Assembly: GCA_018819405.1 (NCBI GenBank)
Contig: JAHJQF010000001.1
Span: forward strand, 162,097 to 226,096
From: Patescibacteria group bacterium
Lineage (GTDB): Bacteria; Patescibacteriota; Patescibacteriia; UBA1558; GWA2-36-10
Length of the DNA: 64,000 nt
Reading direction: 5' to 3'
In this document: piece after piece, positions 19,366-61,870 of the stretch
Layout of the letters: the number at the start of each line of letters is the position of its first letter
How positions within the stretch are numbered: position 1 is the first letter of the stretch
Notes under the pieces: generated by a model
Databases searched by the model: none
What the model saw: the letters and a program-made list of their open reading frames with translations, nothing else
What the model was told of the DNA's origin: nothing
Made by a program: the position numbers and the translations under genes

Positions 19366-19394
19366 TTGACAAAATAGCTATATTATGATATAAA
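19366..19394 (+). promoter_or_regulatory. Promoter TTGACA-N17-TATAAA for the GC-rich lipoprotein cassette
   Basis: Seen in sequence: TTGACA at 19366-19371 and TATAAA at 19389-19394. Confidence 0.5.
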
Positions 19395-19459
19395 AATATG
19401 ATGGTCAACAATGCCCTTACTAGGGCTTTAACCTTTGTTCCCTTTCGAAAGGACAAGTC

Positions 19460-20230
19460 ATGAAAAAACTGCTGTTCTGCGCCATTTTGTTGGCGCTGGT
19501 GGCTGCCCTAGTCTCTGGCTGTACTACTCCCGGCAAAAAGTGGTACGGCTACGATCGCCAAAGCAAGGAATACATCCAGCTCGACAAGCAACCCTTTCAG
19601 CAGGCGGTTTACAACCTCTCCAGTTACACAATCTTCTTCACTCTGGAGGGCAAAGACGCCTGGTCTTGGACCGACCCCTACTACCAGATTGACCCTGGCT
19701 ACTCTGGATCTCTGGAAATACACCAGAGCTACACCAGCGACAAATTTCGCGCCTACTTCTGGTGCAAGGGTTGTCAGGATGTCCTGGGCACTACCGAAGA
19801 GATGATCGAGTTCGAGCTGCCCGGTCTGGCCACCATGCCGACCGATACACTGATTGTCACCGATGCCATGCTTATGGGCGATGCCCTCCAAGAGATGGCT
19901 GTCAAGAACATGACGGGTGTTGACTTGCACTACTACGACAATCGCGGCAACGACTTCGTGATAAAACATGGGCAAGCCTGGAGGCTACTGGTACTCTCCG
20001 GACCCTACAACTTCTGGGTTGAGCCTGTCATCAGACTCAAGTACGAAGCAGCCGCACCGGTAAAGCTGGGACAAGTAAGTTCCGACAAGCCGTTGATTAT
20101 TGACCGGCGACGCAATGCCTTGTGGACTGACCAGAACGGTCAACCCATTTATATCGGCGCCAAACGCATCATCGGTGCCGATGAAATTCCGCGCTTCTGG
20201 CGGGAAAGACGGCATTGGGCCGAGTACTAA
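19460..20230 (+). CDS. GC-rich (about 53% GC) lipoprotein of unknown function; compositionally foreign
   Basis: Signal peptide plus lipobox 'LVSGC'. Codon usage is biased to CTG/GGC/GCC, against roughly 32% GC in the flanks. The gene has its own promoter and terminator. Confidence 0.55.
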   Translation: MKKLLFCAILLALVAALVSGCTTPGKKWYGYDRQSKEYIQLDKQPFQQAVYNLSSYTIFFTLEGKDAWSWTDPYYQIDPGYSGSLEIHQSYTSDKFRAYFWCKGCQDVLGTTEEMIEFELPGLATMPTDTLIVTDAMLMGDALQEMAVKNMTGVDLHYYDNRGNDFVIKHGQAWRLLVLSGPYNFWVEPVIRLKYEAAAPVKLGQVSSDKPLIIDRRRNALWTDQNGQPIYIGAKRIIGADEIPRFWRERRHWAEY

Positions 20231-20233
20231 AAA

Positions 20234-20280
20234 CCCCCGCCTTGTTCTGCAACACAGAACAAGGCGGGGGAATTTTTTTA
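20234..20280. terminator. Bidirectional intrinsic terminator ('cccccgccttgttctg' / 'cagaacaaggcggggg' stem, T tracts on both sides)
   Basis: Perfect 16-bp stem, followed by 'aattttttta' on the plus strand and a T run on the minus strand. It lies between convergent genes. Confidence 0.7.
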
Positions 20281-20295
20281 TATAAATATTTTACA

Positions 20296-20691
20296 CTAAC
20301 CAGTAGCTTCACCACCACCGGTACCAGTACCAGCATTATCAGCTAGAGCTCTCAAAACAAAACTGGCAATTGCATAAGCCATGACAACTATTACTAGACC
20401 AATCACTGAGTTTTTTATAATGCTTTTAGCTTCATCAACTTGTTGGGAGTTTCCTTGGGAAGTCATCCACTTAAATCCTCCCCAAATAATCAAAACCGTA
20501 AAAAGCATGCCCAAAAGAGAAAGTAACGCGTTTATAATTCTGGCTATCATTTGTTGAGGGCTGACACCTTTTATAAGATTGCTGGCATTAGCCGCTTCTT
20601 CCAATCCGGTTTGAGCGGCATAATCAGAAGCTGATACTGCCAAAGGCAGTAATGCAACTAATAAGAAAATTGTATTTTTTATAGATTTCAT
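20296..20691 (-). CDS. TrbC/VirB2-like (T4SS-type) pilin paralog 1, with a Gly-rich C-terminal tail. An ATG start at 20691 is preferred over the track's TTG at 20697.
   Basis: Signal peptide and two TM helices flanking the conserved 'GGFKWMTSQGNSQQVDEAK' motif, plus an 'NAGTGTGGGEATG' tail. Confidence 0.5.
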   Translation of the reverse strand: MKSIKNTIFLLVALLPLAVSASDYAAQTGLEEAANASNLIKGVSPQQMIARIINALLSLLGMLFTVLIIWGGFKWMTSQGNSQQVDEAKSIIKNSVIGLVIVVMAYAIASFVLRALADNAGTGTGGGEATG

Positions 20692-20757
20692 ATGCAATAT
20701 AAGCTTTAGTAGGTCATCATGATAAATGACCCACTATAGTCTAGACTACATAGGTCG

Positions 20758-21108
20758 TTATATGGTCTCATTATAAAGTGACTGCAATACGAATCTAGAT
20801 ATCGCATAAGCGGTCAAAATTATAACCAAACCGACAATACCCGCACCGATAAGCTTTTTAGCTTCGTCAACTTTTTCAGTATTACCCTGAGAAGTCATCC
20901 ATTTGAATCCACCCAACAAAATAATCAAAGTAGCTAAAATGCCCAAAAAACCTAGCACAATATTTACTACTCCACCAATAGTATCTCTTAAGGGTTTTGA
21001 ACCCAAAGCAATATTGGTAGAGGTAAAATCATTAATACCCCATTGATCATCTGAAGCTGATGCCACTGCTGGGAAAAATGCTAGTAAAGAAATCAAGAAT
21101 TTTTTCAT
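20758..21108 (-). CDS. TrbC/VirB2-like pilin paralog 2
   Basis: Signal peptide, 'GGFKWMTSQGNTEKVDEAKK' and a second TM helix. Strong SD ('aaagggggtgaaaaaATG'). Confidence 0.5.
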   Translation of the reverse strand: MKKFLISLLAFFPAVASASDDQWGINDFTSTNIALGSKPLRDTIGGVVNIVLGFLGILATLIILLGGFKWMTSQGNTEKVDEAKKLIGAGIVGLVIILTAYAISRFVLQSLYNETI

Positions 21109-39535: not shown

Positions 39536-40010
39536 AAAGATAGTGCTAACTAGATTGTTTAATTAGCCTTATAGTATAAGGGCTTTATATTATAGAAAGT
39601 TTGCAGTCACAAAAAAGAACTCACCCGATTTTGGGTCAGTTATTTACATTAATTTTCATTTAAAATAGGCTTGGGGCCAAAAATTGCATAGCCCAATGGT
39701 ATCAAATTTGACACCTATTGTCAAGGTCTTGTCCTCATCACTCAGAAACAACAGGCTATTTTTAAGTTTTTTTATCTAATATTAGATAAAAAGTTGCTAT
39801 ATATAAAAGAAAAAATTTGTCAAATTTTATATGTTTTACCAATAAATAAAGGCTATATATACACATATATAGTCATTTACCTACACTTTATCCACACCGT
39901 ACAACCTCGCTACGCTCGGTCTACGGTGCAAGCGTCTTTATTTTTGACTGATTTTAGATAAATCCCGCACCATTTTTGAGTATTAAAAAATGGTGCGGGG
40001 TAAAAAAATA

Positions 40011-40048
40011 GGACGGGGGTCACACGATGCACGTGTGACTTCCCGTCC
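40011..40048 (-). terminator. Intrinsic terminator of the GC-rich pilin gene (hairpin 'ggacggg...cccgtcc' with inner 'gtcacacg/cgtgtgac', followed by a T7 tract on the minus strand)
   Basis: Seen in sequence. It is preceded by a second perfect 11-bp hairpin at 40052-40077 that overlaps the stop codon. Confidence 0.6.
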
Positions 40049-40070
40049 TTTCTCCTAGTACCTGCTGGTA

Positions 40071-40630: not shown

Positions 40631-40662
40631 ACTTATTTACACAAAACTAGCTCTTTTATTAG

Positions 40663-44268: not shown

Positions 44269-44405
44269 AATAATCTTATTCTACCAGACTTAGCCCTCTT
44301 TTTCAATTGACAAAAAATATCTTATATATTAAATTATTTTTGCAACTTGCTTTACTACTATACTTCTGCCCAGTGAGTCTGTACCCTCACAGAAAGGAAG
44401 GATCC

Positions 44406-45185
44406 ATGATCCACTATGAACTACGCAACCCTCTACTTGGTCGCTGGTTTGTAACCACTCTTATCCTCGCCCTAGTCACCACCCTCATCCCAACACTGCA
44501 TTTCCAACCAACAAGTAGCTATTCGCTGATTCTGCCCCAGATAACCCCCGACTGGCTCATCTGGCCACTCAATCTGGCGCTCTTTGTCGCCACGCTGGTC
44601 TGGCTGATCACCAACCGCTTCAGCGTCTGGATTGCCGGCGCCTACAACCACTGGCTCTACCATCTGCTCTGGCTGGCTATGGCCAAGGTTGTTTGGCTGC
44701 TCTTTGGCCCGGTGCTGTCGCTTAATACCCTGATGATCACTAGTTTTGTGGTCGTATTCACTCTCATCACCTACCTAGCTATCAGGAAAATCGGCCAAGA
44801 CATCTACTGGCACTTGCCAACTGTCTTTGTCGTCTACCTGATGGCTCTGCGCCTGATGCATGATGTCAGTCTACTTGGCTGGGGCAAGCCGCTCACTCTG
44901 CTAAGCAAGCAGACCATCCTGCTTTGGACTTGCTTGAAGGTAGTCAGCCTCCCCATCCTCGGTCTCCTGGCCTTGGTCTACATTGCCAGCGGCCTTTACT
45001 TGTTCGGGCAAAAAATCAAAAACAGCTGGGACAACAATCTGGATGAAAGCGAGGAAATAATCGGCCTTTTCATGTTGCTGATTGGCATCATGATTTTCCT
45101 AATCATCTTTGAACTCCCTTACCAAATCAAAGAACACCTCATCAAGCCTACTTGGCATTGGCTCTTTCCCGACTACTCCTACTAG
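44406..45185 (+). CDS. GC-rich (about 52% GC) polytopic membrane protein, unknown function; compositionally foreign. The start is reassigned to 44406; the track ORF at 44307 begins inside the promoter.
   Basis: SD 'aaaggaagg' 6 nt before ATG 44406. Six to eight TM helices. The promoter TTGACA is at 44307-44312, and the terminator at 45198-45245. Confidence 0.5.
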   Translation: MIHYELRNPLLGRWFVTTLILALVTTLIPTLHFQPTSSYSLILPQITPDWLIWPLNLALFVATLVWLITNRFSVWIAGAYNHWLYHLLWLAMAKVVWLLFGPVLSLNTLMITSFVVVFTLITYLAIRKIGQDIYWHLPTVFVVYLMALRLMHDVSLLGWGKPLTLLSKQTILLWTCLKVVSLPILGLLALVYIASGLYLFGQKIKNSWDNNLDESEEIIGLFMLLIGIMIFLIIFELPYQIKEHLIKPTWHWLFPDYSY

Positions 45186-45197
45186 GAGACTGGTCTG

Positions 45198-45245
45198 CCC
45201 CCGCCCGATTCTGTAAAACAGAATCGGGCGGGGGAATTTTTTATT
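45198..45245 (+). terminator. Intrinsic terminator 'cccccgcccgattctg-taaaa-cagaatcgggcggggg aatttttt', a near-duplicate of the terminator at 20234-20280
   Basis: Perfect 16-bp stem plus T tract. The stem ends and the 'gggggaatttttt' tail are identical to the 20234 terminator. Confidence 0.7.
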
Positions 45246-45476
45246 TTAAAAATCAAAATTTGCCTAAACCAAAAAACGCCCCATCGCGCAAGGGAGTTTT
45301 TCGGCTGTCCTATGTGACAGATACCTAGCAAAGACCCTCTCGACTAGGGCATCTGAAGGTATTGATATTATAGCAAATTTAAAAAAGCTTGAAAAGACCC
45401 CTGTGAATAAAATAGCTATTTATCCGCAAAAAATGGCTAAAACTAGAAAAATTTTAAAAGTTTTATATATACTCAA

Positions 45477-45505
45477 TTGACAGCCGAAAAAGAATAATAT
45501 AAAAT
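45477..45505 (+). promoter_or_regulatory. Promoter TTGACA-N17-TAAAAT driving the GC-rich ncRNA candidate
   Basis: TTGACA at 45477-45482 and TAAAAT at 45500-45505. The predicted TSS of about 45512 coincides with the start of the GC-rich block. Confidence 0.5.
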
Positions 45506-45511
45506 CTTTGT

Positions 45512-45805
45512 GGGGCTGCGTGGCAAACGCCACACGCTACGCGATCAGCATCCATGCTGGGCAAGTCGGTTTAGGTGCACCATCAACGCGTCCTAAGAGT
45601 GCTTCTTCCAGCTGATAATGGAAGCCGTTGATAACCGACACTGCGTAGCGCAGCCCCACCAACTCGGGCAAAAGGCAAGGGAGATAAACCTCCTAACGTT
45701 TCAAACCGCGTCAGCGGTGGGAGGCGACCTCGCCAATTTGCCCGCGGAGGGGAGAGTGTGCCGGACACTAATAGTCCGACAAACCTCCCCTCCCTCTTTT
45801 TTTAT
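45512..45805 (+). ncRNA. Candidate structured ncRNA of about 295 nt (about 58% GC) bounded by a promoter and an intrinsic terminator; class unknown
   Basis: Nested long-range helices (512-518/651-657, 535-542/643-650, 563-569/632-638, 580-586/625-631) and a terminal 'ggaggggag...ctcccctcc'+T7 terminator at 45748-45805. There is no plausible ORF; the track ORFs on both strands look spurious. Confidence 0.4.
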
Positions 45806-45860
45806 AAAAATTTTAAACCATTTACCATAATGATGCAGGGTTATTTTTTTTATTTAATAC

Positions 45861-45901
45861 AAAAAAGCCCCCTTGTCTGGTTATGAACCAGACAAGGGGG
45901 C
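45861..45901 (-). terminator. Intrinsic terminator of the small GC-rich membrane-protein gene ('gcccccttgtctggtt / aaccagacaagggggc' with an A/T tract)
   Basis: Seen in sequence: a 16-bp stem and a T run on the minus strand. Confidence 0.6.
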
Positions 45902-45925
45902 GCGAAGTTCTCAAGCCGAAATCGG

Positions 45926-46204
45926 CTACTCGTCAAAGGTCTCTTCGGATTCGTAATTCCGCGCCTGCAGACTACGAACCCTTTTGTAGATAGCCCGACC
46001 GGGCCAGCTCAGTAGACTCACCAACCCAAGACCAATGGGTATGAGCAGGATGTAGGTGACGTAGAAAAACGCCACAACATAAGCAGCCCACTGAGCAGCT
46101 GCCTGAAAACTCGGCAAAAGACCGAGCCCCCACAGACCTACACAGGCCAACAGACAGACACCGTAAAAAAGCACCAAACTAACGACAAAGAGCACAAAGC
46201 GCAT
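45926..46204 (-). CDS. GC-rich small membrane protein with 3 TM helices (92 aa). The ATG at 46204 is preferred over the track's GTG at 46210.
   Basis: AGGAGG SD 9 nt upstream of ATG 46204. The promoter TTGACA-N17-TATCTT (minus) is at 46254-46282. The gene is hydrophobic and about 60% GC. Confidence 0.45.
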   Translation of the reverse strand: MRFVLFVVSLVLFYGVCLLACVGLWGLGLLPSFQAAAQWAAYVVAFFYVTYILLIPIGLGLVSLLSWPGRAIYKRVRSLQARNYESEETFDE

Positions 46205-46285
46205 TACCACCTACCTCCTAAAAAGAGTGAATTGTTCGTACGTTTAACGCTGTAAGATAACATTATTAAAATATTTTGTCAATTC

Positions 46286-46317: not shown

Positions 46318-46686
46318 TTATAAATAACTAAAGTCTTTTCTTCTATCAATCAACTCATAAGCCTTCTTCATTTCTTCGGGTGTGTTTATATAAATAATTT
46401 TGTATTTTCCAGAGGTGGTATTTTTTTCATGATCATGGAAAATTTCCAAAATATGTATCAATCCCCAATACAACCATTTACCGTTTATATTCTGCACTAA
46501 AAAATTTCTAACAGGGGGTCTATGATATATTCTAATATCCTCTTTATCTTTAAAATCAAATATTTTTCCTTCAAAATCCTCGGCCTTGATCTTATTTTTC
46601 AGGTGTTCTTGATAATTCAGTTCCTTTGGAAAACCCTGTTCTGAAGTTATTTGTAAGGTATCATTTATTTTTATAAAACCACCCAT
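46318..46686 (-). CDS. hypothetical protein (122 aa, AT-rich, native)
   Basis: An ORF with no assignable motif. It lies between dnaN and the GC-rich island. Confidence 0.4.
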   Translation of the reverse strand: MGGFIKINDTLQITSEQGFPKELNYQEHLKNKIKAEDFEGKIFDFKDKEDIRIYHRPPVRNFLVQNINGKWLYWGLIHILEIFHDHEKNTTSGKYKIIYINTPEEMKKAYELIDRRKDFSYL

Positions 46687-46690
46687 AAAT

Positions 46691-47791
46691 TTATTGCCTA
46701 ATAGGCATTACCAAATAAATATATTTGTCATTACCAACTGGCTGAAGTAGCCCTGGTGATGAATTATTGTTTATCTTCATATTTACTTCACTGGTACCCA
46801 GCTGATTAAGGCCATCTAGTAAATAGCGGTAGTTAAAGACAATATCATTTTCTTCTCCTTTTATTTCTGCTGAGACATTGGCAATTGAAGTACCAGTATT
46901 TGATGAAGCAGTAGCGATAATTATTTTTTGAGACTTGGCATCAAAACTAAGTCTTATATCATTAATACCTTGTTTGCAAAACAGAGCCACTGATTTTATA
47001 GCTGGGACAAGCTTACTAATATTGCACTTGGCTTCAGTTTTGAATTCAGCTGGAATAATTTGACTATAATCTGGGTATTTACCATCTATTACACGCGATA
47101 TGAGCTCTACTCCATCAAGCTCAAACATTATCTGATTTTCATTAAAAAATATTTTGAGTTTTTTGTCCTGCTGGTCATTTAGAATCCTAGCTAATTCTTG
47201 TAAAGTTTTGAGAGGAATTATTAGGTTTTTGTTTTCCCCGTTTTCTACTGGGATTTTCTTTTCAGCCAAACGGTAGCTATCAGTAGCTGCTAGAGTAAGT
47301 TCATTTTTTTGAAAGTTGAAGTTTACAGCATTTATTTCAATCCTTGAGACATCTAGTGACGCGGCTAGTAGCACTTGAGAAAGACTTTTTTTCAAGTCAG
47401 CGATTGAGATTTCTACCATGTTATGTTTTTCTATTTCTGGTATCAGAGGAAAGTCTTCAGCAAGCATGCCTTTGATAGAGGTTTCTTGGTTGGCACTTTT
47501 TATTTCTAGGTTATCTCCGTCCAAGTTGATTTCAATATTTTCTCTGGGAAGAAAAGAAACAAAGTTGTGAATCAATTTAGCATCTACTGTAAACTCGCCT
47601 GACTTTTCTATTTTTCCTCTAATTGATGCTTTGATACCAATTTCCAAATCAGTAGTGATCAAAGTGAGATCGTTTTTTTCTGCTTTCAATAATACATTAT
47701 TCAAAATTGGCAAGTTGGAACTTTTGTTGGCAATGTTTGATACCAAAGATAATCCTTTATTCAAATTTTCCTGAGTGCAAACAATTTTCAT
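46691..47791 (-). CDS. dnaN: DNA polymerase III beta sliding clamp
   Basis: Three-domain clamp of 366 aa, immediately downstream of dnaA. Confidence 0.93.
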   Translation of the reverse strand: MKIVCTQENLNKGLSLVSNIANKSSNLPILNNVLLKAEKNDLTLITTDLEIGIKASIRGKIEKSGEFTVDAKLIHNFVSFLPRENIEINLDGDNLEIKSANQETSIKGMLAEDFPLIPEIEKHNMVEISIADLKKSLSQVLLAASLDVSRIEINAVNFNFQKNELTLAATDSYRLAEKKIPVENGENKNLIIPLKTLQELARILNDQQDKKLKIFFNENQIMFELDGVELISRVIDGKYPDYSQIIPAEFKTEAKCNISKLVPAIKSVALFCKQGINDIRLSFDAKSQKIIIATASSNTGTSIANVSAEIKGEENDIVFNYRYLLDGLNQLGTSEVNMKINNNSSPGLLQPVGNDKYIYLVMPIRQ

Positions 47792-48088
47792 ATTATTATT
47801 GTTTAATTATTTATATATAAAATTTAGTAGTAGTTATAGGCACGGTGGATATGTTTATAAGTGGAGAAAAATTTTGGTAAAGCCTAGGAAAATTTGTTTT
47901 TATTTTGGATTTTAGCTGGTGGACAATCAGTTCACAAAAATGTTGATAAGAGGTTTTTTTGTGAATAAGTTTTGAGACTTTATTTTGATCGGTGGATAAG
48001 CTGGTGTTTATACACAGTTAGTTATAAAACTTTACACAAGGTTATAAAAAACTTATAAACAATTTATTCACGCAATTTTTGTGAATCT
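47792..48088. promoter_or_regulatory. oriC-type region: a cluster of DnaA-box-like 9-mers between dnaA and dnaN, plus an A/T-rich unwinding tract
   Basis: 'ggtggataa' at 47991-47999, 'tgtgaataa' at 47961-47969, 'tgttgataa' at 47941-47949, 'ggtggacaa' at 47918-47926, 'ttattcacg' at 48065-48073 and 'tgtgaatct' at 48081-48089. Two perfect tandem 'tgtggataa' boxes lie upstream of dnaA at 49573-49591. Confidence 0.6.
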
Positions 48089-49471
48089 TTAATTGCGTTC
48101 ATAGATTTTTGTCTTTAAAACTAAGATGTCATTTTTAATTCTATCATCAGATTCAATTAAGGTGGTTACTTTGACACAGGCGTGCATGGCAGTGGTGTGA
48201 TCTCGTCCGCCTATTTCTTGCCCGATGTTTGGGTAAGAGGCTTTAAGCTCTTCTCTCATCAAAAACATAGCAATTTGTCGGGGCACTACCAATTCTTTTT
48301 TGCGGCTGGCGCCCAAGAGATTTTCCATGCTAATGTCGTAAAATTCTGAAATGACTGTCAAAAGTCTTTTGGGGGTCAGTCCCGCCTTTCTAGGATTGGC
48401 AGCAATACCTCCCAAAATGGATTTTACGCTCTCTAAACTAGGAGTGGTGTTGTTGAGTTGATGAAAAGCAATAATTCTATTTAGAGCGCCTTCTAACTCG
48501 CGGATATTTTCTTGAATAGTTTCAGCAATATATTGAACTATCTTTGGGTCAAGATTATATTTTTTTTCTTGGGCCTTAATTTCTAAAATAGCCACTCTAG
48601 TTTCTAGATCAGGAGAAGAAATATCGGCAATCATCCCCCACTCAAAACGGGAAATCAACCTGTTCTCTACTTCTTGGATAGCTTTTGGTGGTCTATCAGA
48701 AGATATAACTATTTGTTTATTGTTTTGGTGAAGGGCATTGAAAGTATGGAAAAATTCCTCTTGAGTTTGTTCTTTTCCGGCTATAAACTGGATATCATCA
48801 ATCAAAAGCACGTCAATATTTCTATACATTTGCTTAAATTTGTCAGTTTGTCCCGATTTTATAGCAAAAATAAAGTCATTGGTAAATTTTTCGCTATTAA
48901 TATAAAGGACCCTTTTACTAGGATCTTTGGCTAATATATAATTACCAACAGCTTGGACTAGGTGAGTTTTTCCCAAACCTACACCACCATATATAAATAA
49001 AGGATTGTAGATTTCACCAGGTTTTTGAGCAGCCGCATGAGCAGCCGCTTGGGCCAACTCATTGCCTGGTCCAACAACAAAGGTTTCAAACTTATAGTGA
49101 GGATTTAGGCCAAATTTACTGACACTTTGGCCATTAGAAGGATTGCTGGAGTTATGCACATAGGAGGTTTTTTCTTTATTAATATTTTCAACATTTTCGC
49201 TAATGTCAGCCATCTTTTCCTTTGTTATGACCCTGTAGATAACCTGTAGATTATTTTTTGATAACACATTTTCCAGAGCTGATATAATTTTGTCGTGGTA
49301 CTTCTTTTCCAACCATACTTTGGTAAAGGCATTGGGCACTCCAACCACCACTTGGTCTGATTCAACACTGGCAATAAAGGTATTTTTAAACCAAGTAGTA
49401 AAGTTTGCTTTACTGATTAAAAGTTCTAATTCACCCAGGGTATTTTCCCAGATTTTATCGTAATTTTCCAT
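48089..49471 (-). CDS. dnaA: Chromosomal replication initiator DnaA
   Basis: AAA+ 'GGVGLGKTHL' and the C-terminal DnaA-box-binding domain; 460 aa. Confidence 0.95.
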   Translation of the reverse strand: MENYDKIWENTLGELELLISKANFTTWFKNTFIASVESDQVVVGVPNAFTKVWLEKKYHDKIISALENVLSKNNLQVIYRVITKEKMADISENVENINKEKTSYVHNSSNPSNGQSVSKFGLNPHYKFETFVVGPGNELAQAAAHAAAQKPGEIYNPLFIYGGVGLGKTHLVQAVGNYILAKDPSKRVLYINSEKFTNDFIFAIKSGQTDKFKQMYRNIDVLLIDDIQFIAGKEQTQEEFFHTFNALHQNNKQIVISSDRPPKAIQEVENRLISRFEWGMIADISSPDLETRVAILEIKAQEKKYNLDPKIVQYIAETIQENIRELEGALNRIIAFHQLNNTTPSLESVKSILGGIAANPRKAGLTPKRLLTVISEFYDISMENLLGASRKKELVVPRQIAMFLMREELKASYPNIGQEIGGRDHTTAMHACVKVTTLIESDDRIKNDILVLKTKIYERN

Positions 49472-53274: not shown

Positions 53275-53349
53275 GACCCCATAGTTTAATGGATAAAACA
53301 AGAACCTCCTAAGTTCTAGATCCAGGTTCGATTCCTGGTGGGGTCACCA
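53275..53349 (+). tRNA. tRNA-Arg (anticodon CCU) with an encoded CCA
   Basis: Folded by hand: acceptor 'gacccca'/'tggggtc', D-arm 'gttt-aatggata-aaac', anticodon arm 'agaac-cuCCUaa-gttct', T-arm 'ccagg-ttcgatt-cctgg', discriminator A and CCA; 75 nt. Confidence 0.85.
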
Positions 53350-54444: not shown

Positions 54445-54576
54445 AAATAGCCGTTTCCAAGAGAAATAAAGTTAATACACAAATATTAGCCAAATTAAAT
54501 AGGCCGCTACGGAGCTATTTGGCCTCTCAGACAATAAACAAACACTTGTGAGCTACACTGGGGCGTAGCTATTTTC

Positions 54577-54605
54577 TTGACAATCCTCATAAAAAGATAT
54601 ATAAG
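54577..54605 (+). promoter_or_regulatory. Promoter TTGACA-N17-TATAAG. It is the first copy of a 25-nt direct repeat 'ctggggc.(3-4 nt).ttattttcttgaca', at 54558-54582 (phased from the TTGACA position).
   Basis: TTGACA at 54577-54582 and TATAAG at 54600-54605. The repeat copy at 55077-55100 carries the promoter of the CsoR-like gene. Confidence 0.45.
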
Positions 54606-54611
54606 AAAAGG

Positions 54612-54895
54612 ATTCTTTGAAATATCTTGGCCAATATGGCCCTAGCGTCTAGTTTGGATAAAAAGGATATCTGATTTGGCTGCTGTGGCTATAAAAGTCA
54701 AAGCCGTGAAAGCTAAAGCGTAATTTGACCTTATAGTCAGAATTTAGTTCTTTATGGTAATTTTTGAGTGAGAGAGCTAGGGTAAGGGGTTCGCGCCCAG
54801 CATCCTTTACGGAGGGTGTCCGAGGACATACTCGGAGGAACTTCTTCCCTGCTGGCCCCACTGACTTCGGTTGGTGGGGCTATTTTATTTGACCC
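54612..54895 (+). ncRNA. Candidate promoter-to-terminator transcript of about 285 nt with a GC-rich structured 3' half; class unknown
   Basis: No credible ORF. The 3' half carries a three-way junction (stem 54797-54802/54850-54855 enclosing hairpins 54819-54836 and 54837-54848). It ends at terminator 'gcccca-ctgacttcggttgg-tggggc' (54855-54880) followed by 'tattttattt'. Confidence 0.3.
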
Positions 54896-55788: not shown

Positions 55789-55794
55789 ATAATT

Positions 55795-56748
55795 ATGGCA
55801 GAACAAAATTATGATGTAATAATTGTCGGGGCTGGCCCAGCAGGACTGACAGCGGCAATTTATACTTCTCGTCGTGCTCTCAAGACCCTAGTCATTTCCA
55901 AAGATGTTGGCGGTCAGCTTGCTTTGACTGATGATGTAGAAAACTATCCTGGTTTTAATACAATTGGCGGTTTGGAATTGTCACAAAAATTTCAAGAGCA
56001 GGCGGCTAAGACCGGTGTAGAATTTTTGTTTGAAGGAGCAGAAAAAATAACCAAAGACGGCAATAATTTTTTGCTGGAAACTAGCACTGGTAAAAAGCTT
56101 GGCGCTAGAACAATTATTTTATGTTTTGGTCTTACACCGCGTACATTGGATGTGCCGGGTGAAAAAGAATTGACCGGCCGAGGTGTCAGCTACTGCGCTA
56201 CTTGTGACGGGCCATTGTATAGAGGCAAAAATGTAGTGGTAGTAGGTGGGGGTAATTCAGCTCTTGATGCTGCGGAGTATTCTTCCAAGCTAGCCAAAAA
56301 GGTGTATATGTTGGTTCGCAAAGATGCTTTTCGCGGTGAGCAGGTTTTGATTGACCACGTCAACAATGCCGAAAATGTAGAAATTATTTTCAATGCCGCG
56401 GCCAAAGAAGTCAAAGGCACAGACAGGGTGGAGAAGTTGGTTTATGAGACCGCAGATGGTCAGCAAAAAGAAATAGAGGTAGAAGGTATTTTTGTAGAGA
56501 TTGGTCATGTGGCCAAGACGGGTTGGTTGGACAATCTTGGTTTGGACATGACAAACAGAAAAGAAATTATTATTAGCCGTGACAATGAGACTAATATTAA
56601 AGGTATTTTTGCGGCTGGTGATATTACTGATATTACTTATAAACAAGCGGTGATTTCAGCCGGGGAAGGATCCAAAGCAGCCTTGCAAGCTTACAAATAT
56701 TTGCAGGGTGATAAGCCGATAGTCCCTGACTGGACACCAAAGAAATAG
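55795..56748 (+). CDS. trxB: Thioredoxin-disulfide reductase
   Basis: FAD motif 'VIIVGAGPAG', redox-active 'CATCDG' and NADPH motif 'VVVVGGGNSA'. Confidence 0.9.
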   Translation: MAEQNYDVIIVGAGPAGLTAAIYTSRRALKTLVISKDVGGQLALTDDVENYPGFNTIGGLELSQKFQEQAAKTGVEFLFEGAEKITKDGNNFLLETSTGKKLGARTIILCFGLTPRTLDVPGEKELTGRGVSYCATCDGPLYRGKNVVVVGGGNSALDAAEYSSKLAKKVYMLVRKDAFRGEQVLIDHVNNAENVEIIFNAAAKEVKGTDRVEKLVYETADGQQKEIEVEGIFVEIGHVAKTGWLDNLGLDMTNRKEIIISRDNETNIKGIFAAGDITDITYKQAVISAGEGSKAALQAYKYLQGDKPIVPDWTPKK

Positions 56749-56879
56749 CCAAGTCATCCTGAATTCCTGCCCGACATGCCTGATGGCAGTGTGGTGGCAG
56801 GTGGGCACTTCAGGATTTAGTCGATTATTTTAATCATTAAGTAGATCCCGGATCAAGTCCGGGATGACAATGTATAGTT

Positions 56880-58109
56880 ATGAATGCTTATGATAATGCA
56901 ATGAGGCAACTGGAAAAAGCCTCAAAGCTTATGAACCTCGACAAAGACGTGTTGTCGAGATTGTCTTCTCCAGAAAGGGTAGTAATGGCTTCTTTACCTG
57001 TCAAAATGGATGACGGAAGTCTTAGAATTTTTCAGGCCTATAGAGTACAGTACAATTCTGCTCGCGGACCATACAAAGGAGGAATTCGCTTTCATCCCCA
57101 AGTTGATTTGGACGAAGTAAAAGCATTGGCTTTTTGGATGACTATTAAGACTTCGGTAGTTGGCATCCCTATGGGCGGTGGCAAAGGGGGAGTGATAGTA
57201 GATCCAAAATCTTTGTCAGTTTCAGAAATTGAAAGATTATCTCGGGCTTGGATTAGAGCCTTTCGCTCAGTGATTGGGCCAGAAAAAGATGTGCCTGCTC
57301 CAGATGTTTATACCACTCCACAAATTATGGCTTGGATGGCTGATGAATTTTCTCAATTGGAAGGCAAGGCCAGTCTAGGCGTAGTAACTGGCAAGCCTCT
57401 AGAATATGGCGGCTCAAAAGGACGCGGTACTTCTACGGCTATGGGTGGATTCTATGTCCTGACGGAAGCAATAAAAGAACTTGGCTTGGAAGCAAAAAAA
57501 ACTAAAGTAGCTATCCAGGGTTTTGGTAATGCCGGAGCAACTATGGCTCATCTTTTGCATGAGGCAGGATATAAGGTAGTAGCTTTGGCTGATTCCAAGT
57601 CCATTGTCTACAATGACAAAGGCATTGATATTGATGAAGCTGAAAATTATAAAAAAGACAAAGGTTCTTTGGCTGGATTAGCTGGTACCAAAGATATAAA
57701 TATCAAAGAATTCTTTGCACTGGATGTTGATGTGATAGTGCCAGCTGCACTTGAAAACCAAATCAGCAAAGATAATGCCAACGACATCAAAGCCAAGATT
57801 GTGTTGGAATTGGCTAATGGTCCGACTACTCCTGAAGCTGATGAAATAATGTTTGAAAAAGGTATTATGTTGATTCCAGATGTACTAGCTAATGCTGGTG
57901 GGGTGACAGTATCTTATTTTGAATGGTTACAAAATATTTCTAACAACTACTGGAGCGAAGAAGAAGTAGATAGTGAACTCAAAGAAAGGATGATTCCGTC
58001 TTTTCAGACAATACTAGAGATGTCCAAAGAATATAAAACTGATTTAAGGACAGCCGCTTTTATTTCGGCTCTTCGTCGCATAGAAGCAGCTAGTAAAGTA
58101 AGAAATTAA
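56880..58109 (+). CDS. gdhA: Glutamate dehydrogenase (Glu/Leu/Phe/Val dehydrogenase family)
   Basis: 'PMGGGKGGVIVDPK' catalytic lysine motif and NAD(P) Rossmann 'GFGNAGA'; 409 aa. Confidence 0.88.
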   Translation: MNAYDNAMRQLEKASKLMNLDKDVLSRLSSPERVVMASLPVKMDDGSLRIFQAYRVQYNSARGPYKGGIRFHPQVDLDEVKALAFWMTIKTSVVGIPMGGGKGGVIVDPKSLSVSEIERLSRAWIRAFRSVIGPEKDVPAPDVYTTPQIMAWMADEFSQLEGKASLGVVTGKPLEYGGSKGRGTSTAMGGFYVLTEAIKELGLEAKKTKVAIQGFGNAGATMAHLLHEAGYKVVALADSKSIVYNDKGIDIDEAENYKKDKGSLAGLAGTKDINIKEFFALDVDVIVPAALENQISKDNANDIKAKIVLELANGPTTPEADEIMFEKGIMLIPDVLANAGGVTVSYFEWLQNISNNYWSEEEVDSELKERMIPSFQTILEMSKEYKTDLRTAAFISALRRIEAASKVRN

Positions 58110-58130
58110 ATTTTTATATAAAAAGAAGAA

Positions 58131-58163
58131 GCACCCCAAGACATGGCAAGGGGTGCTTTTTTG
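58131..58163. terminator. Bidirectional intrinsic terminator 'gcacccc-(12 nt)-ggggtgc' + T6
   Basis: Seen in sequence, between gdh (+) and the GC-rich Cys-rich gene (-). Confidence 0.6.
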
Positions 58164-58184
58164 TTGCGGCGCTTGTGGTGGCGC

Positions 58185-58457
58185 CTAGTTGTTGTCCGGT
58201 TCGGGCTCGGGATCCTGGCGGGGGCGGGGATCACGGGGATCCTGCTGCGGTGGGGCAGCCTCATAGAGAGGCTCTTTCTTCGACTGGAAACATCCGCAAC
58301 TTTCGTTGCAACTTTCCTTGCCACACTGGCACCTGCTCATGGGGAGCCTCCTCGGGATTGGGTGATGAAGTCCATTAGATCCCATGATTGGAATGCCGGC
58401 GAGATCATCTCTGCCTTCGGTTTCGTACCAATCGCCGGTTCCAAAACAACCGCCCAT
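58185..58457 (-). CDS. GC-rich (about 63% GC) small Cys-rich, Pro/acidic-tailed protein (90 aa), unknown function; compositionally foreign
   Basis: AGGAGG SD 6 nt before the ATG, and a perfect TTGACA-N17-TATAAT promoter on the minus strand (58499-58527). 'CQCGKESCNESCGC' is a putative metal-binding cluster, and the tail is '...DPRDPRPRQDPEPEPDNN'. The overlapping plus-strand ORF 58143-58472 is judged spurious. Confidence 0.4.
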   Translation of the reverse strand: MGGCFGTGDWYETEGRDDLAGIPIMGSNGLHHPIPRRLPMSRCQCGKESCNESCGCFQSKKEPLYEAAPPQQDPRDPRPRQDPEPEPDNN

Positions 58458-58498
58458 AGGGCACCTCCTTAAAGATAATAGTGGTAGTCAGTTATAAG

Positions 58499-58527
58499 AT
58501 TATAACCAGCCTTATATTTTTTGTCAA
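58499..58527 (-). promoter_or_regulatory. Consensus sigma70 promoter TTGACA-N17-TATAAT (minus strand) for the Cys-rich gene
   Basis: Seen in sequence: 'ttgacaaaaaatataaggctggtTATAAT'. Confidence 0.55.
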
Positions 58528-58566
58528 AAGTAAAACACCGAGCTTCCGTGGAGAGGTTCGGTGTTT

Positions 58567-59190
58567 TTATGATGGTAGGTCTTGCCGACAAGTGACAGCA
58601 AATGGATTGCTGGTCAGCACCTTATCTAGATCAAAACCTTGCAATAAGTGGAATCCGTTTTCACTGGTCTCCGGCAGATCGTCTAGACAGTGAAATATAA
58701 GGTAGCTTTTGAGGCAGACAACTTTGGGACAGTTGGCAAAGGCTTGGCCAAGGTCAAATTCGTAGAGAAAGTCTAGCTCGCTTGGGGGTTGGTATATTTC
58801 TAGCAAATAATCTCTGGCCATTATTTGAGCAGTCATTTCCGATTTTGTTTCGGGATCACTTATGGACTCTACAAACATTTCCAATACCTCATCCATACTG
58901 GGTTCTATAGCAATGAGGTCGTCTAGACCGTTTAGATTACGGTCATAAGTGTCTTCCGGAAAAATCGGTAGACCGCATTCTTCCAGGTCAAACCAGTCTG
59001 GCGGGCAGCTAGTATCTTGGGTAGTTTTTTCTTCATCAGAAAAAACAAGTGTTTCCTCCTGGTCTAGTTCTCTGAGGTGATCGTAACCGTCAGTCAGGGG
59101 CAAGATTATAAGGTAATTTTTGTCCAGTTGAGCCATCATTCCCTCCTTGGTGTCAATGTTCGCGACTTCCATCTTAATTATACCCAGCAT
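58567..59190 (-). CDS. hypothetical highly acidic protein (207 aa, intermediate GC of about 43%)
   Basis: An ORF rich in Asp/Glu with no known motif. The start is ambiguous (59190, or an internal Met at 59139/59136 next to a 'ggaggg' SD). Confidence 0.35.
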   Translation of the reverse strand: MLGIIKMEVANIDTKEGMMAQLDKNYLIILPLTDGYDHLRELDQEETLVFSDEEKTTQDTSCPPDWFDLEECGLPIFPEDTYDRNLNGLDDLIAIEPSMDEVLEMFVESISDPETKSEMTAQIMARDYLLEIYQPPSELDFLYEFDLGQAFANCPKVVCLKSYLIFHCLDDLPETSENGFHLLQGFDLDKVLTSNPFAVTCRQDLPS

Positions 59191-59224
59191 TTCTTTTTTC
59201 TGTCAAAAATTATATAATTTTATT

Positions 59225-59836
59225 ATGTCAAAATATATCATCGGAATAGACGAGGCTGGTCGCGGGCCACTGGCTGGACCAATAGTAGCGGCTGGTATAA
59301 TCTTTCGTGGCTCAAAAAGGGAAAAGCAAATTTTGGATTTAGTAGATGATAGTAAAAAACTTAGCCTCAAGAGGCGAGAGGATTTATTTTTACCAATTAT
59401 CAAAAATTTTATTTGGTCAGTCAGGATGTATGATAATAATTTTATAGATAAATATGGCATTCAAAGAGCCAATATACTTTTATTTCACGATATTGTAGAA
59501 GATTTAGGAAAATATTTTGGTAAAACAAATGATGTGGTGGCTGATTATGTGGGGGGAGGGGAAACAGTTTTGAAAAATATAAATTTTTTTAAGTCTGGTG
59601 AAAGTCAATTCAAAGAAATTGCTGCTGCTTCGATATTGGCTAAGGTATATCGTGATAGATTGATGATGGATATAGATAAAAATTATCCGCATTATGAATT
59701 TGGGCTGCACAAAGGCTATGGTACTCGAAGACATTTTGAAGCAATCTCTAGACATGGCTTGTCACCAATTCATAGAAAAAGCTTTCTAAAAAATTCAGCC
59801 CTTGCGTATTTTGATACTACAAGGGCTAAGATTTAG
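59225..59836 (+). CDS. rnhB: Ribonuclease HII. The start is reassigned to 59225; the track ORF begins at 59147.
   Basis: 'MSKYIIGIDEAGRGPLAGPIVAAG' is the canonical RNase HII N-terminus with the DEDD catalytic residues. Confidence 0.85.
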   Translation: MSKYIIGIDEAGRGPLAGPIVAAGIIFRGSKREKQILDLVDDSKKLSLKRREDLFLPIIKNFIWSVRMYDNNFIDKYGIQRANILLFHDIVEDLGKYFGKTNDVVADYVGGGETVLKNINFFKSGESQFKEIAAASILAKVYRDRLMMDIDKNYPHYEFGLHKGYGTRRHFEAISRHGLSPIHRKSFLKNSALAYFDTTRAKI

Positions 59837-60177
59837 TTGGAGCCTGCTCCGTTGAGAGAGCGAGGTTCTACTACGCGACCTTCTTTGATTGCTCGGATGA
59901 TACCTTGGATCATACCGTCGGAAATACCTCGATCAATATAGACTACAGTGGCTTGAGCTTGGTGTCCCCAAGCCAAGCCGGCTTCAATACCAAGTCTTCT
60001 TTGTTCGGGTACAGTATCGTCTAAGATGCCTTCTTGGGTATAGAGTAGGTGCGAGGCATAAGGAGCTTCACCGCGTTTGAGACAATCAAGGACACAAGCT
60101 CTAGCGTAGCGAATGTTGGCTTGTACTTCCTCGGGAGTGCCGGCAAAGGGGCTTTCTATTATTACTAGACGGTGCAT
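59833..60177 (-). CDS. GC-rich (about 52% GC) hypothetical protein, possibly a DUF4406-like fold (nucleoside 2-deoxyribosyltransferase-like, common in phages)
   Basis: 'LVIIESPFAG...EAPYASH...YIDRGISDGMIQGIIRAIKEG' loosely matches the DUF4406 pattern. AGGAG SD. The gene is convergent with rnhB and overlaps it by 4 nt. Confidence 0.35.
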   Translation of the reverse strand: MHRLVIIESPFAGTPEEVQANIRYARACVLDCLKRGEAPYASHLLYTQEGILDDTVPEQRRLGIEAGLAWGHQAQATVVYIDRGISDGMIQGIIRAIKEGRVVEPRSLNGAGSN

Positions 60178-60262
60178 GTTTTTCTCCTGTCTGAAAGTTT
60201 GTTGTACGAAGTGGGCAGGACACTAATATTTATTAACATAGAAAAAATATTTGAGCAAGTTC

Positions 60263-60368
60263 TTGACAGACAAAATAAATTTGTTGTAAGATAGAAGAAC
60301 AAATAAAGCCGTCTATTTTTTGAGAGACGGCTATACATACAAAAGCCCCCACATTGTGGGGGCTTTTG
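60263..60368 (+). promoter_or_regulatory. Compact promoter-hairpin-terminator unit: TTGACA-N18-TAAGAT (60263-60292), a roughly 70-nt transcript with hairpin 'gccgtct-attttttgag-agacggc' (60308-60331), and intrinsic terminator 'gccccca-cattg-tgggggc' + T4 (60345-60368)
   Basis: Seen in sequence. It contains no ORF and lies between the DUF4406-like gene and ssb. It is a candidate sRNA or an insulating terminator. Confidence 0.35.
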
Positions 60369-60490
60369 CGAAGAAAAGCGATTTTGAGAGCTAACTAGGT
60401 TAGTCTCAACAGAATCATACGACAAATTGAGAGATTTGTCAATATTTATTAGTAATTCCACAATATGTGGATAGGAAAGGAAAAGTGATT

Positions 60491-60898
60491 ATGGACTTAA
60501 ACAAAGTAAGTCTAATCGGCAATTTAGTAGCCGATCCAGAGGCCAGGACATTGCCCTCCGGGCAAAATCTAGCAGTATTTAAGATTGCGACCAATTATGT
60601 TTGGCGTGATCAGCAAAGCAAAGAAAAAAAGACCAGGGCTGATTTTCACCGGGCTGTGGCTTGGGGGCACTTGGCAGATATTATCAATACCTACCTAAAA
60701 AAAGGCTCCAAGGTTTTTTTGGAAGGGCGTTTGCAAAATCGTTCTTGGGAAGATAAAAATAAAAACAAAAGATATACCACAGAGATTGTGGCTAGTGATT
60801 TGATAATGCTAGGTGGCAGCAACAAAAAAACTGTTACTGGTGACGAAACAGCTAGAGAGGATGTTGATGTACAGACTATAGAGCTAGACGATAATTAA
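60491..60898 (+). CDS. ssb: Single-stranded DNA-binding protein. The start is reassigned to 60491; the track ORF begins at 60467.
   Basis: OB-fold 'VSLIGNLVADPEARTLPSGQNLAVFKIATN...FHRAVAWGHLAD' and an acidic C-terminus. SD 'aggaaagga'. Confidence 0.85.
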   Translation: MDLNKVSLIGNLVADPEARTLPSGQNLAVFKIATNYVWRDQQSKEKKTRADFHRAVAWGHLADIINTYLKKGSKVFLEGRLQNRSWEDKNKNKRYTTEIVASDLIMLGGSNKKTVTGDETAREDVDVQTIELDDN

Positions 60899-61142
60899 TT
60901 GTCTTTTCAAGGTCTGAAGTTTGCCTGTATCTTCAGGCCTTCAATAAGACAATTAGAAGAAAGCGATTTTTCTGTCTCAGGGAGCATCTTTTTGGTGGGA
61001 GAGCTAAATTGTCCTAGGTTAGTTTTTTGTGTTCGTGCAAAAAGCTAACCACGATGTTCATTGACAAAACCAAAGGAGGAAAACAGCACTAGTCCATTCT
61101 AGTTTTTGGTCACCGGTTCCCACAAAACAAAAGGAGAGGGTC

Positions 61143-61826
61143 ATGAAAGGTAAAGTGTGTTGGCTCAGCTTGTTGATTATGGCCATGGTCACTTTTTGGC
61201 TTATTGGCTGTGATCGCGAGGAAGCGGGAGTGGTGTCTCCCGTTGAGGTGGAGCAAGTCGTTGCCAGCCCAAGTGAGCAGGCGGAGAAAGCTTATCCACC
61301 CTATTCATTCTCGCTCAGGGTTCCGTTTCTCACGCAGGTTCCGCCTGGAGATTGGCTCAACACCAAAAACTGTGGGCAGACTTGTGCTGTCATGTTGGGT
61401 GGCTATTTTAATAATAGCCCAGTCAACTCAAGTCAAATTACAGCTCAGAATGTCTGGTTGGCAAACTATACTGGCAATTCTTGCTATAATCGGGCCAATG
61501 GTTGCGATACCTCAATTTATCGATTGAAAACGCTACTGGAACAGAAACATAAATTGCGCACTTCATATCCCGCTTGCAGTACGCTAGAGCAACTGATCAA
61601 TATAGTTGCTAGCGGTAAACCTTGTGTAGTCGGGGTGATGATCAAGAGCGGCAACTTGGTTTCAAGCGGTGGGTATCCTCATTGGGCCATTGTAGTTGGC
61701 TGGAATGGCAACGTGATCATCAATGATCCGGGCTCTTCCCGTGGCAATCATCGCAGCTATTCCATAGCCGCTTTTGATGCCTCTTGGGCAACTCAAGGCA
61801 GAACATATTTTTCTGTCTCGCGTTAG
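61143..61826 (+). CDS. GC-rich (about 50% GC) lipoprotein with a C39-like (papain-fold) peptidase domain; compositionally foreign
   Basis: Signal peptide plus lipobox 'LIGC'. Candidate catalytic Cys 'TKNCGQTCAVML' and His 'YPHWAIVVGWNGNVIINDPG' (Peptidase_C39_2 / YvpB-like layout). SD 'aaaaggagagggtc'. Confidence 0.5.
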   Translation: MKGKVCWLSLLIMAMVTFWLIGCDREEAGVVSPVEVEQVVASPSEQAEKAYPPYSFSLRVPFLTQVPPGDWLNTKNCGQTCAVMLGGYFNNSPVNSSQITAQNVWLANYTGNSCYNRANGCDTSIYRLKTLLEQKHKLRTSYPACSTLEQLINIVASGKPCVVGVMIKSGNLVSSGGYPHWAIVVGWNGNVIINDPGSSRGNHRSYSIAAFDASWATQGRTYFSVSR

Positions 61827-61832
61827 CCTAGT

Positions 61833-61870
61833 GGGGCGAGTCAAATTTTTAACTCGCCCCCCATATCTTT
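61833..61870 (+). terminator. Hairpin 'ggggcgagt-(10 nt)-actcgcccc' downstream of the C39-like gene
   Basis: A 9-bp G/C stem with a weak T tract after it. Confidence 0.4.

Follow-up and report, generated by a model that had tools for sequence, protein, structure and literature searches.

The DNA studied here, a stretch of 64,000 nucleotides called the window below, comes from contig JAHJQF010000001.1 of the Patescibacteria assembly GCA_018819405.1 and carries, between AT-rich core genes, a set of short GC-rich genes that are the subject of this report. The host is a Komeilibacteria-like Parcubacterium of the candidate phyla radiation (CPR): in a DnaN scan, which retrieved 54 loci, the closest matches, at 79-82% identity, were Candidatus Komeilibacteria and related Parcubacteria. 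The genes dnaA and dnaN lie on the minus strand at 46691-49471 and the cumulative GC skew reaches its minimum at about 46.8-47.2 kb, so that the window spans the replication origin oriC. A preliminary description had singled out "at least six" GC-rich single-gene cassettes in this DNA; these six are real, but the gene that we call C6 and a non-coding unit at 45477-45810 had been overlooked, and there are nine units, namely eight protein genes (C1 to C8) and one structured RNA of 290 nt. They are self-contained, mostly monocistronic transcription units placed in intergenic slots between core genes near oriC. A unit consists of a sigma70-type promoter, a leader of 30-100 nt, a strong Shine-Dalgarno (SD) sequence, one small open reading frame (ORF) or structured RNA and, mostly, a G/C terminator. 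Seven of the nine lie within ~12 kb of the replication origin. Their parts are as follows, with promoters written as -35 hexamer, spacer length in nt and -10 hexamer (CDS, coding sequence).

C1 unit, 19366-20280, plus strand: promoter TTGACA-17-TATAAA at 19366-19394; leader of ~60 nt with SD AGGA; CDS 19460-20230; terminator 20234-20280.
C2 unit, 39958-40660, minus strand: -35 box TTGACA at 40629-40624, 17-nt spacer, TAAGAT at 40606-40601; leader of ~100 nt with SD AGGAGG; CDS 40071-40493; two hairpin terminators, 40010-40049 and 39960-40000.
C3 unit, 44307-45245, plus strand: promoter TTGACA-17-TAAATT; leader of ~60 nt with SD; CDS 44406-45185; terminator 45198-45234, with a 17-bp stem followed by a T-tract.
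GC-rich non-coding unit, 45477-45810, plus strand: promoter TTGACA-17-TAAAAT; RNA of ~290 nt; hairpin and T-tract terminator.
C4 unit, 45867-46282, minus strand: promoter TTGACA-17-TATCTT at 46282-46254; SD AGGAGG; CDS 45926-46204; terminator with a 16-bp stem at 45901-45867.
C5 unit, 58125-58529, minus strand: perfect promoter TTGACA-17-TATAAT at 58527-58499; SD AGGAGG; CDS 58185-58457; bidirectional terminator at ~58130-58165.
C6 unit, 58530-59206, minus strand: perfect promoter TTGACA-18-TATAAT at 59206-59177; SD AGGAGG; CDS 58567-59139; bidirectional terminator at ~58533-58566.
C7 unit, 59776-60240, minus strand: weak promoter; SD AGGAG; CDS 59833-60177; no terminator, the stop codon overlapping that of rnhB.
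C8 unit, 61061-61862, plus strand: TTGACA at 61061 without a good -10 box; SD AGGAG; CDS 61143-61826; hairpin 61832-61860.

Most units encode fast-evolving envelope or secreted proteins. C1 specifies a lipoprotein of 256 amino acids (aa; lipobox VSGC, NCBI locus tag KKH39_00865, on a contig of 1,035,872 bp) and C8 another of 227 aa (lipobox LIGC); in both, the lipobox (...LVSG/C and ...WLIG/C) follows an N-terminal hydrophobic segment, and it is kept in P0002, the C1 orthologue of a sister species, and in most distant C1 relatives. C8 also matches Peptidase_C39_2 (PF13529, E=6.4e-7, 30.5 bits for a cut-off of 24), its candidate catalytic Cys lying in NCGQTC. C2 is a type IV pilin-like protein of 140 aa recognized by PF07963 N_methyl (E=1.4e-9, 37.6 bits, cut-off 21.2) and by TIGR02532 (36.2 bits, cut-off 16.3); like type IV pilins and pseudopilins it has a prepilin motif, KG/FTLIE, and a hydrophobic segment (residues 4-34). 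No full-length pilin equivalog scored above its cut-off for C2, and there is no exact C2 protein on record. C3 is a polytopic membrane protein of 259 aa, and C4, of 92 aa with about three transmembrane (TM) segments, had no family member in other genomes. The claim that all products are envelope or secreted proteins holds for most of them but fails for three, which have neither signal peptide nor TM segment: C5, a Cys-rich acidic peptide of 90 aa that has two starts in frame, each an ATG with its SD (at 58457 and 58340), C6, an acidic protein of 190 aa (isoelectric point 4.1), and C7, of 114 aa. The last belongs to DUF7768 (PF24963, E=2.5e-28; phrog_24212, E=8e-39) and is nucleoside 2-deoxyribosyltransferase-like according to PHROG. 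Matches to PHROG among the units were confined to C7 and the N-terminal motif of C2, while PADLOC and NCBIfam recognized nothing among the cassettes besides the pilin N-terminal motifs of C2. An AlphaFold2 model of C1 built on a two-sequence alignment was unusable (predicted local distance difference test score of 32). The non-coding unit holds no credible ORF; its 290-nt RNA, with 58% GC, has a minimum free energy of -139.3 kcal/mol (z = -7.4 against dinucleotide shuffles) and gave no Rfam family (gathering score for the whole window, E<=5 on 45150-45950) and no homologue among the syntenic loci that we fetched from related genomes.

All six segments first described are compositionally distinct, by their GC content as well as by the GC content at third codon positions (GC3) of their genes, but the difference had been overestimated: taken whole they contain, in order, 51.3, 48.8, 46.9, 51.9, 44.4 and 47.6% GC, that is 44-52% instead of 50-65%, and the DNA outside them contains 35.7%, not 30-33% (36.8% for the window overall). 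GC3 of the native genes is 0.306 +/- 0.035 (n=48 genes), as compared with 0.68 for C1, 0.81 for C2, 0.69 for C3, 0.58 for C4, 0.60 for C5, 0.43 for C6, 0.39 for C7 and 0.49 for C8, which corresponds to z values of 2.4 to 14.2; C7 is barely an outlier, its raised GC coming from codon positions 1 and 2. The reported high-GC codon usage was correct insofar as CTG, GGC and GCC are commoner in the cassettes; more exactly, nearly all C-ending codons reach about twice their native share, while GGG, ACG and GCG are not raised and NNG codons in four-fold boxes are not enriched. The shift goes from T-ending to C-ending codons (TAC from 15% in native genes to 64% in cassettes, AAC from 19 to 60%, ATC from 14 to 55%, and likewise GCC from 27 to 49% and CCC from 12 to 44%), and it is about twice as large for NNY as for NNR codons. 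Amino acids are GC-shifted as well, Lys making up 3.7% of cassette proteins versus 9.2% of native ones. The change in composition begins at the transcription start: the cassette promoters have 13-27% GC and the leaders 37-55%, for 28% in native intergenic DNA. Within the cluster at 44.3-46.3 kb the spacers are AT-rich, as is the neighboring accessory gene p122.

The expression signals are of two kinds, those shared with the rest of the genome and those peculiar to the units. Within 44-64 kb, the strongest matches to a sigma70-type promoter belong to C6, C5, the RNA unit, C3 and C4, and seven of the nine units possess a promoter and a terminator of their own around a single gene. A near-consensus promoter and a long G/C terminator, announced for every cassette, are thus found in most: C8 has no acceptable -10 box, C7 has a weak promoter only, and C7 also lacks a terminator. 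The perfect TTGACA-17-TATAAT reported at 58499-58527 is present, on the minus strand, and C6 has a second perfect one. TTGACA-type promoters and G/C hairpin terminators, however, serve native genes too (upstream of rpoB and ssb, and after rpoC), so that promoters and terminators are the house style of this genome, and what sets the cassettes apart is confined to the SD, the leader and the composition. The strong SD was described as mostly lacking in native genes, which our counts bear out: it is present in 8/8 cassette ORFs and 6/49 native genes (Fisher p = 2e-6), as AGGAGG, AGGAG or AGGA placed 6-10 nt before the start, with duplex energies of -8 to -14.7 kcal/mol. Across 20 loci (the window and its relatives), an SD precedes the first ATG of 51% of GC3-high ORFs versus 9% of other ORFs (p = 4e-11). 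A -10 box lies 5-10 nt ahead of the ATG in about 20% of native genes, as compared with 6% at random positions; this points to leaderless or SD-independent initiation that is widespread in the lineage. The host core is AT-rich and SD-less, with about 20% of its genes looking leaderless, whereas the units are leadered, SD-dependent and rich in C-ending codons.

The terminators at 20234 and 45198 are close to identical, as the preliminary description stated (79% over 56 nt, for 0 such matches expected by chance), having in common CCCCGCC...TTCTG...CAGAA...GGCGGGG. The common origin that it deduced from them is not supported. The C1 terminator of the sister species has another stem base, CCCTGCTTCG..., with compensatory changes, and the native terminator after rpoC (32140) is 81% identical to the one at 60340; from these two observations we read the similarity as convergence or a house style, which makes the shared terminators a weak argument for common origin.

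Consensus promoters and strong SDs could mean that the units are simply the most highly expressed genes of the cell, with C-ending codons being translationally optimal, and the fact that the bias is mainly a move from T-ending to C-ending codons, the NNY shift exceeding the NNR shift, agrees with this explanation. But the gene of ribosomal protein S20 has a GC3 of just 0.38 and rpoB, rpoC, recA and thioredoxin have 0.24-0.33; the value for S20 speaks against the usual adaptation of codons to strong expression. An Akashi-type test gave no sign of selection for translational accuracy either, the GC3 of C1 being 0.67 at conserved residues and 0.64 at changed ones (p = 0.6), and the leaders and the non-coding RNA unit are GC-rich as well. 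Codon adaptation is accordingly an improbable cause of the composition.

Striking composition joined to a textbook promoter, SD and terminator might also evoke a chimeric assembly, contaminant DNA or a synthetic construct, and an engineered origin had been raised; nothing beyond this appearance speaks for it. The Logan assembly of SRR6514730 is 100% identical to the window along 20,771 bp that include C1 with its two junctions, family members occupy the same slots in at least 6 other environmental genomes from different studies, and the ratio of nonsynonymous (dN) to synonymous (dS) divergence of C1, C6 and C7, about 0.10-0.15, indicates purifying selection. Artefact and engineering are excluded.

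The slots were followed through syntenic loci fetched from related environmental genomes (L-numbered below, L156 being the closest relative). The gene order dnaA-dnaN-gap-ruvA-femAB-ntp-murX-gap-rpoB is conserved in them, except that ntp is absent in a few, and the two gaps vary in length, dnaN-ruvA between 4 bp and 6.7 kb and murX-rpoB between about 0.4 and 4.5 kb. The units are flanked by dnaN, ruvA, murX, rpoB, gdh, rnhB, ssb, the gene of a DUF2079 protein and type IV secretion system (T4SS)-pilin genes, and for seven of the nine another species carries a family member in the corresponding slot. For C1 this is the L002 orthologue P0002 (71% identity, GC3 0.69). The C2 slot, between murX and the rpoB leader, holds in L005 a divergent GC-rich pilin-like gene (31% identity over 110 aa, GC3 0.62) and is empty in L006-L010. 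The C3 family recurs at the ruvA-adjacent slot in L007, L008 and L011, at 27-28% aa identity and with a GC3 of 0.51-0.55 over backgrounds of 0.23-0.35. In the C5 slot (gdh-rnhB), L158 has a unit for a 60-aa peptide (MACQFCGKNSCNEGC..., GC3 0.61), which corresponds only to the shorter Cys-rich C-terminal C5 product and has with it in common the motif CxxCGKxSCNExC followed by an acidic proline-rich tail. The C6 slot contains an orthologue in L156 (67% identity, GC3 0.38) and a 206-aa gene in another relative; C7 has an orthologue in L162 (75% identity, GC3 0.40) and is absent from L156, L158 and L159. Finally, the C8 slot (ssb-LTD) is empty in L156, L158 and L162, and in L159 it carries a C39_2 gene with 28% identity, a dN of 0.94 and a native GC3 of 0.25, in which SD and hairpin are kept.

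Whole units are thus present or absent at precise boundaries, which agrees with the proposal of a dispersed accessory set, mostly of surface proteins, not forming one island. Relative to L156, the window has extra DNA at 58125-58525 (C5), 59776-60240 (C7) and 60957-62568 (C8 and an AT-rich gene); for C5 the difference runs from just outside the -35 hexamer through the terminator, with AAAAG at both break points. We had taken C5, C7 and C8 for insertions and revised this, since such units exist in more distant relatives and their loss from L156 is no less likely than a gain here. The pattern in the compared loci is thus one of old residents subject to patchy loss and, in some slots, to extreme divergence or allele replacement. 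Mobility genes, tRNA adjacency and direct repeats were not found for the units, save the 5-bp AAAAG at C5: the sole tRNA (Arg-CCT, 53275-53349) adjoins none of the nine, Pfam results for the window genes and the syntenic loci contain no integrase, transposase, other recombinase domain or phage structural gene, and a search for a recombination-site motif common to the units brought out nothing beyond a local duplication on the flanks of ssb. Mutagenesis by a diversity-generating retroelement was considered and dropped, there being no template/variable repeat pair, and no reverse transcriptase among the genes checked.

As gains, losses and divergent alleles are concentrated in the slots, GC-biased gene conversion at sites of recombination could be thought to raise local GC, and the GC3 of C1, equally high at variable and conserved residues, would fit. 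The rise nevertheless stops at the promoter, and the spacers and the AT-rich accessory genes found in the same hot spots (p122 and 61907-62404) are not raised; because these neighbors remain AT-rich, we reject regional gene conversion. To our knowledge, an effect of +0.4 to +0.5 in GC3 also far exceeds any described for GC-biased gene conversion in bacteria. This explanation is very improbable. Those two accessory genes, at 46318-46686 (minus strand, p122) and 61907-62404 (plus strand), have a GC3 of 0.28-0.29 while occupying the same variable slots as the units, so that not all flexible genes here are GC-rich; a p122 homologue was found only in L031, at another position, and the 165-aa gene at 61907-62404 is absent from L156 and L159.

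The age of the units can be compared with that of their surroundings. C1 and its L002 orthologue differ by a dS of 1.52 and a dN of 0.18, C6 and its L156 orthologue by 1.46 and 0.22, and C7 and its L162 orthologue by a dS of 2.15, the range for ten native genes compared between the window and the L002/L156 genome being 1.5-2.4. With their low dN/dS of about 0.12-0.15, C1 and C6 are real genes under purifying selection that co-diverged with their flanks. The units belong to the clade's own flexible gene pool, and three of them (C1, C6 and C7) have diverged in step with the flanking core genes; a recent acquisition is not supported, given these dS values and the host-like, AT-rich promoters. Yet the composition of C1 has hardly moved: its GC3 is 0.68 here and 0.69 in the sister species, over backgrounds of 0.31 and 0.29, and its GC content at four-fold sites (GC4, 80 sites) is 0.69 and 0.675. 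For comparison we derived a reversible substitution matrix from 2016 four-fold sites of native genes and applied the change of one lineage. Under this neutral model, C1 would have fallen to a GC4 of 0.53-0.58 from an ancestor with 100% GC and to 0.52 from one with 90% GC, so that the observed values exceed the prediction even for the former (binomial p = 0.03-0.05 against 0.58 and 0.002-0.004 against 0.52). The GC4 of C3, 0.69 (n = 127), is above all neutral predictions (0.37-0.56) for relatives sharing its family, and genes of that family are 0.2-0.38 over background in GC3 in four species. Finally, C1, its orthologue, C3 and L010_13111 have nearly the same four-fold composition (A.09-.13, C.46-.47, G.20-.22, T.19-.24), and such agreement between unrelated units looks like a shared stationary state instead of stages of decay.

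These results bear directly on the main rival, which is a serious one although we consider it rather unlikely: import with slow amelioration. The units, or their current alleles, would come from GC-richer donors that use SDs, either phages or other bacteria, and would still be ameliorating, the slots being refilled now and then by divergent foreign alleles. Atypical GC, SD and amino-acid composition, and the precise boundaries at which whole units are present or absent, would follow naturally, as would same-slot alleles of unlike GC3 (0.49 versus 0.25 for C8, with its dN of 0.94, and 0.81 versus 0.62 for C2), and the values of C6 and its orthologue (0.43 and 0.38) fit partial amelioration. Against import stand the co-divergence of C1, C6 and C7 with their flanks, the excess of C1 over neutral prediction even from an ancestor of pure GC, a poor fit to the C3 data, a GC3 that does not track apparent age, host-like AT-rich promoters and, unlike in typical high-GC genomes, NNG codons that are not enriched in four-fold boxes. 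The donors are also difficult to place, since in the fetched Parcubacteria loci GC-richer relatives use SDs as rarely as AT-rich ones (8-17%), which makes them unlikely sources of the SD signal.

A word-index search of 5.8 billion protein clusters retrieved C1 from this genome and one relative only, and C3 from this genome only; a profile search of 1.84 billion cluster representatives added nine further distant relatives of C1, a family of 10 representatives that are all lipoproteins of ~240 aa save one 150-aa fragment. The absence of homologues of C1 and C3 outside such a tiny clade-level family speaks against import, and against a recent acquisition from high-GC taxa. Scans of IMG/VR, by a method that detects close relatives only, found none for C1, C2, C3, C6 and C8, and INPHARED phages (tblastn and blastn) gave no match for C1, C6 and C8, the only cassette proteins searched there, or for the RNA unit. 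C7 counts in favor of import, with 17 viral homologues in IMG/VR at 52-67% identity on contigs of 30-66% GC, the two closest being on contigs of 66% GC. Scanning metagenomes with RNase HII brought up contigs that were all distant or short.

Folding of the messengers gives a further indication. When synonymous codons are permuted inside each gene, keeping protein and codon usage, the cassette mRNAs are predicted to fold more stably than their own permutations, with a mean z of -2.57 for the cassettes and -0.90 for 16 native genes of similar size (Mann-Whitney p = 0.0096), and z <= -2.1 in six of the eight cassette CDSs. Our tentative preference goes to GC-richness as a maintained property of this expression class, most likely kept by selection on RNA, and not as what a recent import would have left before amelioration. 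Such selection would act on the stability and/or the translation of leadered, SD-initiated, structured mRNAs. Since hairpins insulate each unit, a unit can be lost or replaced without polar effects.

Several points weigh against this preference. Holding GC3 at 0.7-0.8 in a genome at 0.3 would take unusually strong selection. For C1, neutral decay is rejected only moderately when the ancestor is taken at its most extreme (n = 80 sites), and local compositional heterogeneity can inflate the z scores of synonymous permutation. GC3 spreads from 0.39 to 0.81 among the units, C6 and C7 being only mildly raised, and the C8 relative in L159, with native GC3 and its SD kept, shows that GC-richness is not obligatory for the class. 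The amino-acid composition is GC-shifted, as expected of foreign proteins, and C7 clearly sits in a phage-borne family.

By extension, it is possible, at a lower degree of confidence, that Komeilibacteria and perhaps other Parcubacteria run two expression dialects side by side in a small genome: a core that is AT-rich, SD-less and in part leaderless, and insulated GC-rich, SD-led, structured mRNAs that selection would have held over >1.5 synonymous substitutions per site. If so, compositional heterogeneity would be functional, giving fast-evolving surface proteins, and at least one structured RNA, a high-output channel of stable mRNAs, and would not be a fossil of horizontal transfer. Atypical GC is routinely taken as a sign of recent transfer; here it marks old residents and, in C1, outlasts synonymous saturation, which makes this clade a natural test case for separating GC held by RNA selection from mutation or transfer history. 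The units, comprising a pilin, lipoproteins, small membrane proteins, a Cys-rich peptide and a C39-like peptidase, are also the likeliest gene set for the cell-surface interactions of an uncultured lineage of episymbiont type. Gene callers and detectors of horizontal gene transfer that use a single model of ribosome-binding site or of composition will mislabel such genomes.

Other small elements were observed around the units. A small RNA gene of ~95 nt at 45262-45395 (minus strand) has a promoter TTTTCA-17-TATAAT at 45395-45367 and a terminator with the conserved loop UUGCGCGAU, and is found downstream of dnaN in 15 related genomes; it gave no Rfam family, the search of the window returning tRNA-Arg only. 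At 54576-54890 (plus strand), a promoter-like TTGACA...ATAAGA and a terminator with a 13-bp stem (54853-54882) bracket ~300 nt of 47% GC with no credible ORF. Upstream of ssb, within 60263-60412, a promoter TTGACA-18-TAAGAT is followed by two hairpins, an element that may be a leader or a small RNA; L158 and L162 have the element as well, and in L156 its promoter and start, at least, are retained. A second copy of one part of it (GAAGAAAGCGATTTT...CTAGGTTAGT) lies immediately downstream of ssb (60955-61035), a duplication confined to this genome, and a minus-strand promoter TTGACA-17-TATGAT at 60442-60414 faces into the region. The CNNM-csoR slot of relatives holds a family of 139-159-aa proteins with GC3 0.07-0.26 over background (L156 4653-5072, L158 6245-6724, L159 1439-1873 and L162 1451-1918), which is absent from the window. 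Between trxB and gdh, L156 further carries a gene for malic enzyme (6901-8037) that the window lacks (56748-56880), a whole-gene presence/absence difference for a metabolic gene.

Several known systems resemble the units in part. Replacement islands and flexible islets for surface structures, such as O-antigen/rfb clusters, keep an atypical GC for long periods; like them, the units occupy fixed slots between core genes with divergent alleles or contents, encode surface products and do not ameliorate, but they are single-gene units of 0.4-0.9 kb instead of multi-gene clusters, they are GC-rich inside an AT-rich genome, opposite to the classic case, and they are tied to an SD mode of initiation. 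With recent genomic islands they have in common an atypical composition and not the recent arrival, given dS values equal to those of the flanks and same-slot relatives for seven of nine. Integron cassettes are also small, mostly single-ORF elements, often for small secreted or membrane proteins, and end in a hairpin; the units differ in having their own promoters, in being dispersed in both orientations instead of arrayed, and in the lack of an integrase nearby. On inspection of the sequences their hairpins do not have the form of attC sites, which are imperfect palindromes with R''/L''/L'/R' boxes and extrahelical bases: the perfect G/C stems of 13-17 bp followed by T-tracts identify them as intrinsic terminators. 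As with the "atypical" class and the mixed RBS-leaderless genomes modelled by GeneMarkS-2 (PMC6028130; RBS, ribosome-binding site), two gene classes in one genome are separated by composition and initiation signal; the difference is that the class described here is defined by synteny-conserved slots and persists across species. Anatomically, the nearest known counterpart of the units is the phage moron, an independent transcription unit that has been inserted among conserved genes of a phage (PMC3594210): both consist of a single gene with its own promoter and terminator and a GC content unlike that of the neighbors (PMC3594210), are present or absent at the same position in relatives and often encode membrane or surface proteins, and the family of C7 is phage-borne. 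The units fall outside the defining context of morons, since the genome that holds them is not a phage's: they lie between bacterial core genes, in no prophage and with no flanking phage genes, and several of them are old, vertically inherited residents in which composition persists and is no mark of recent transfer.

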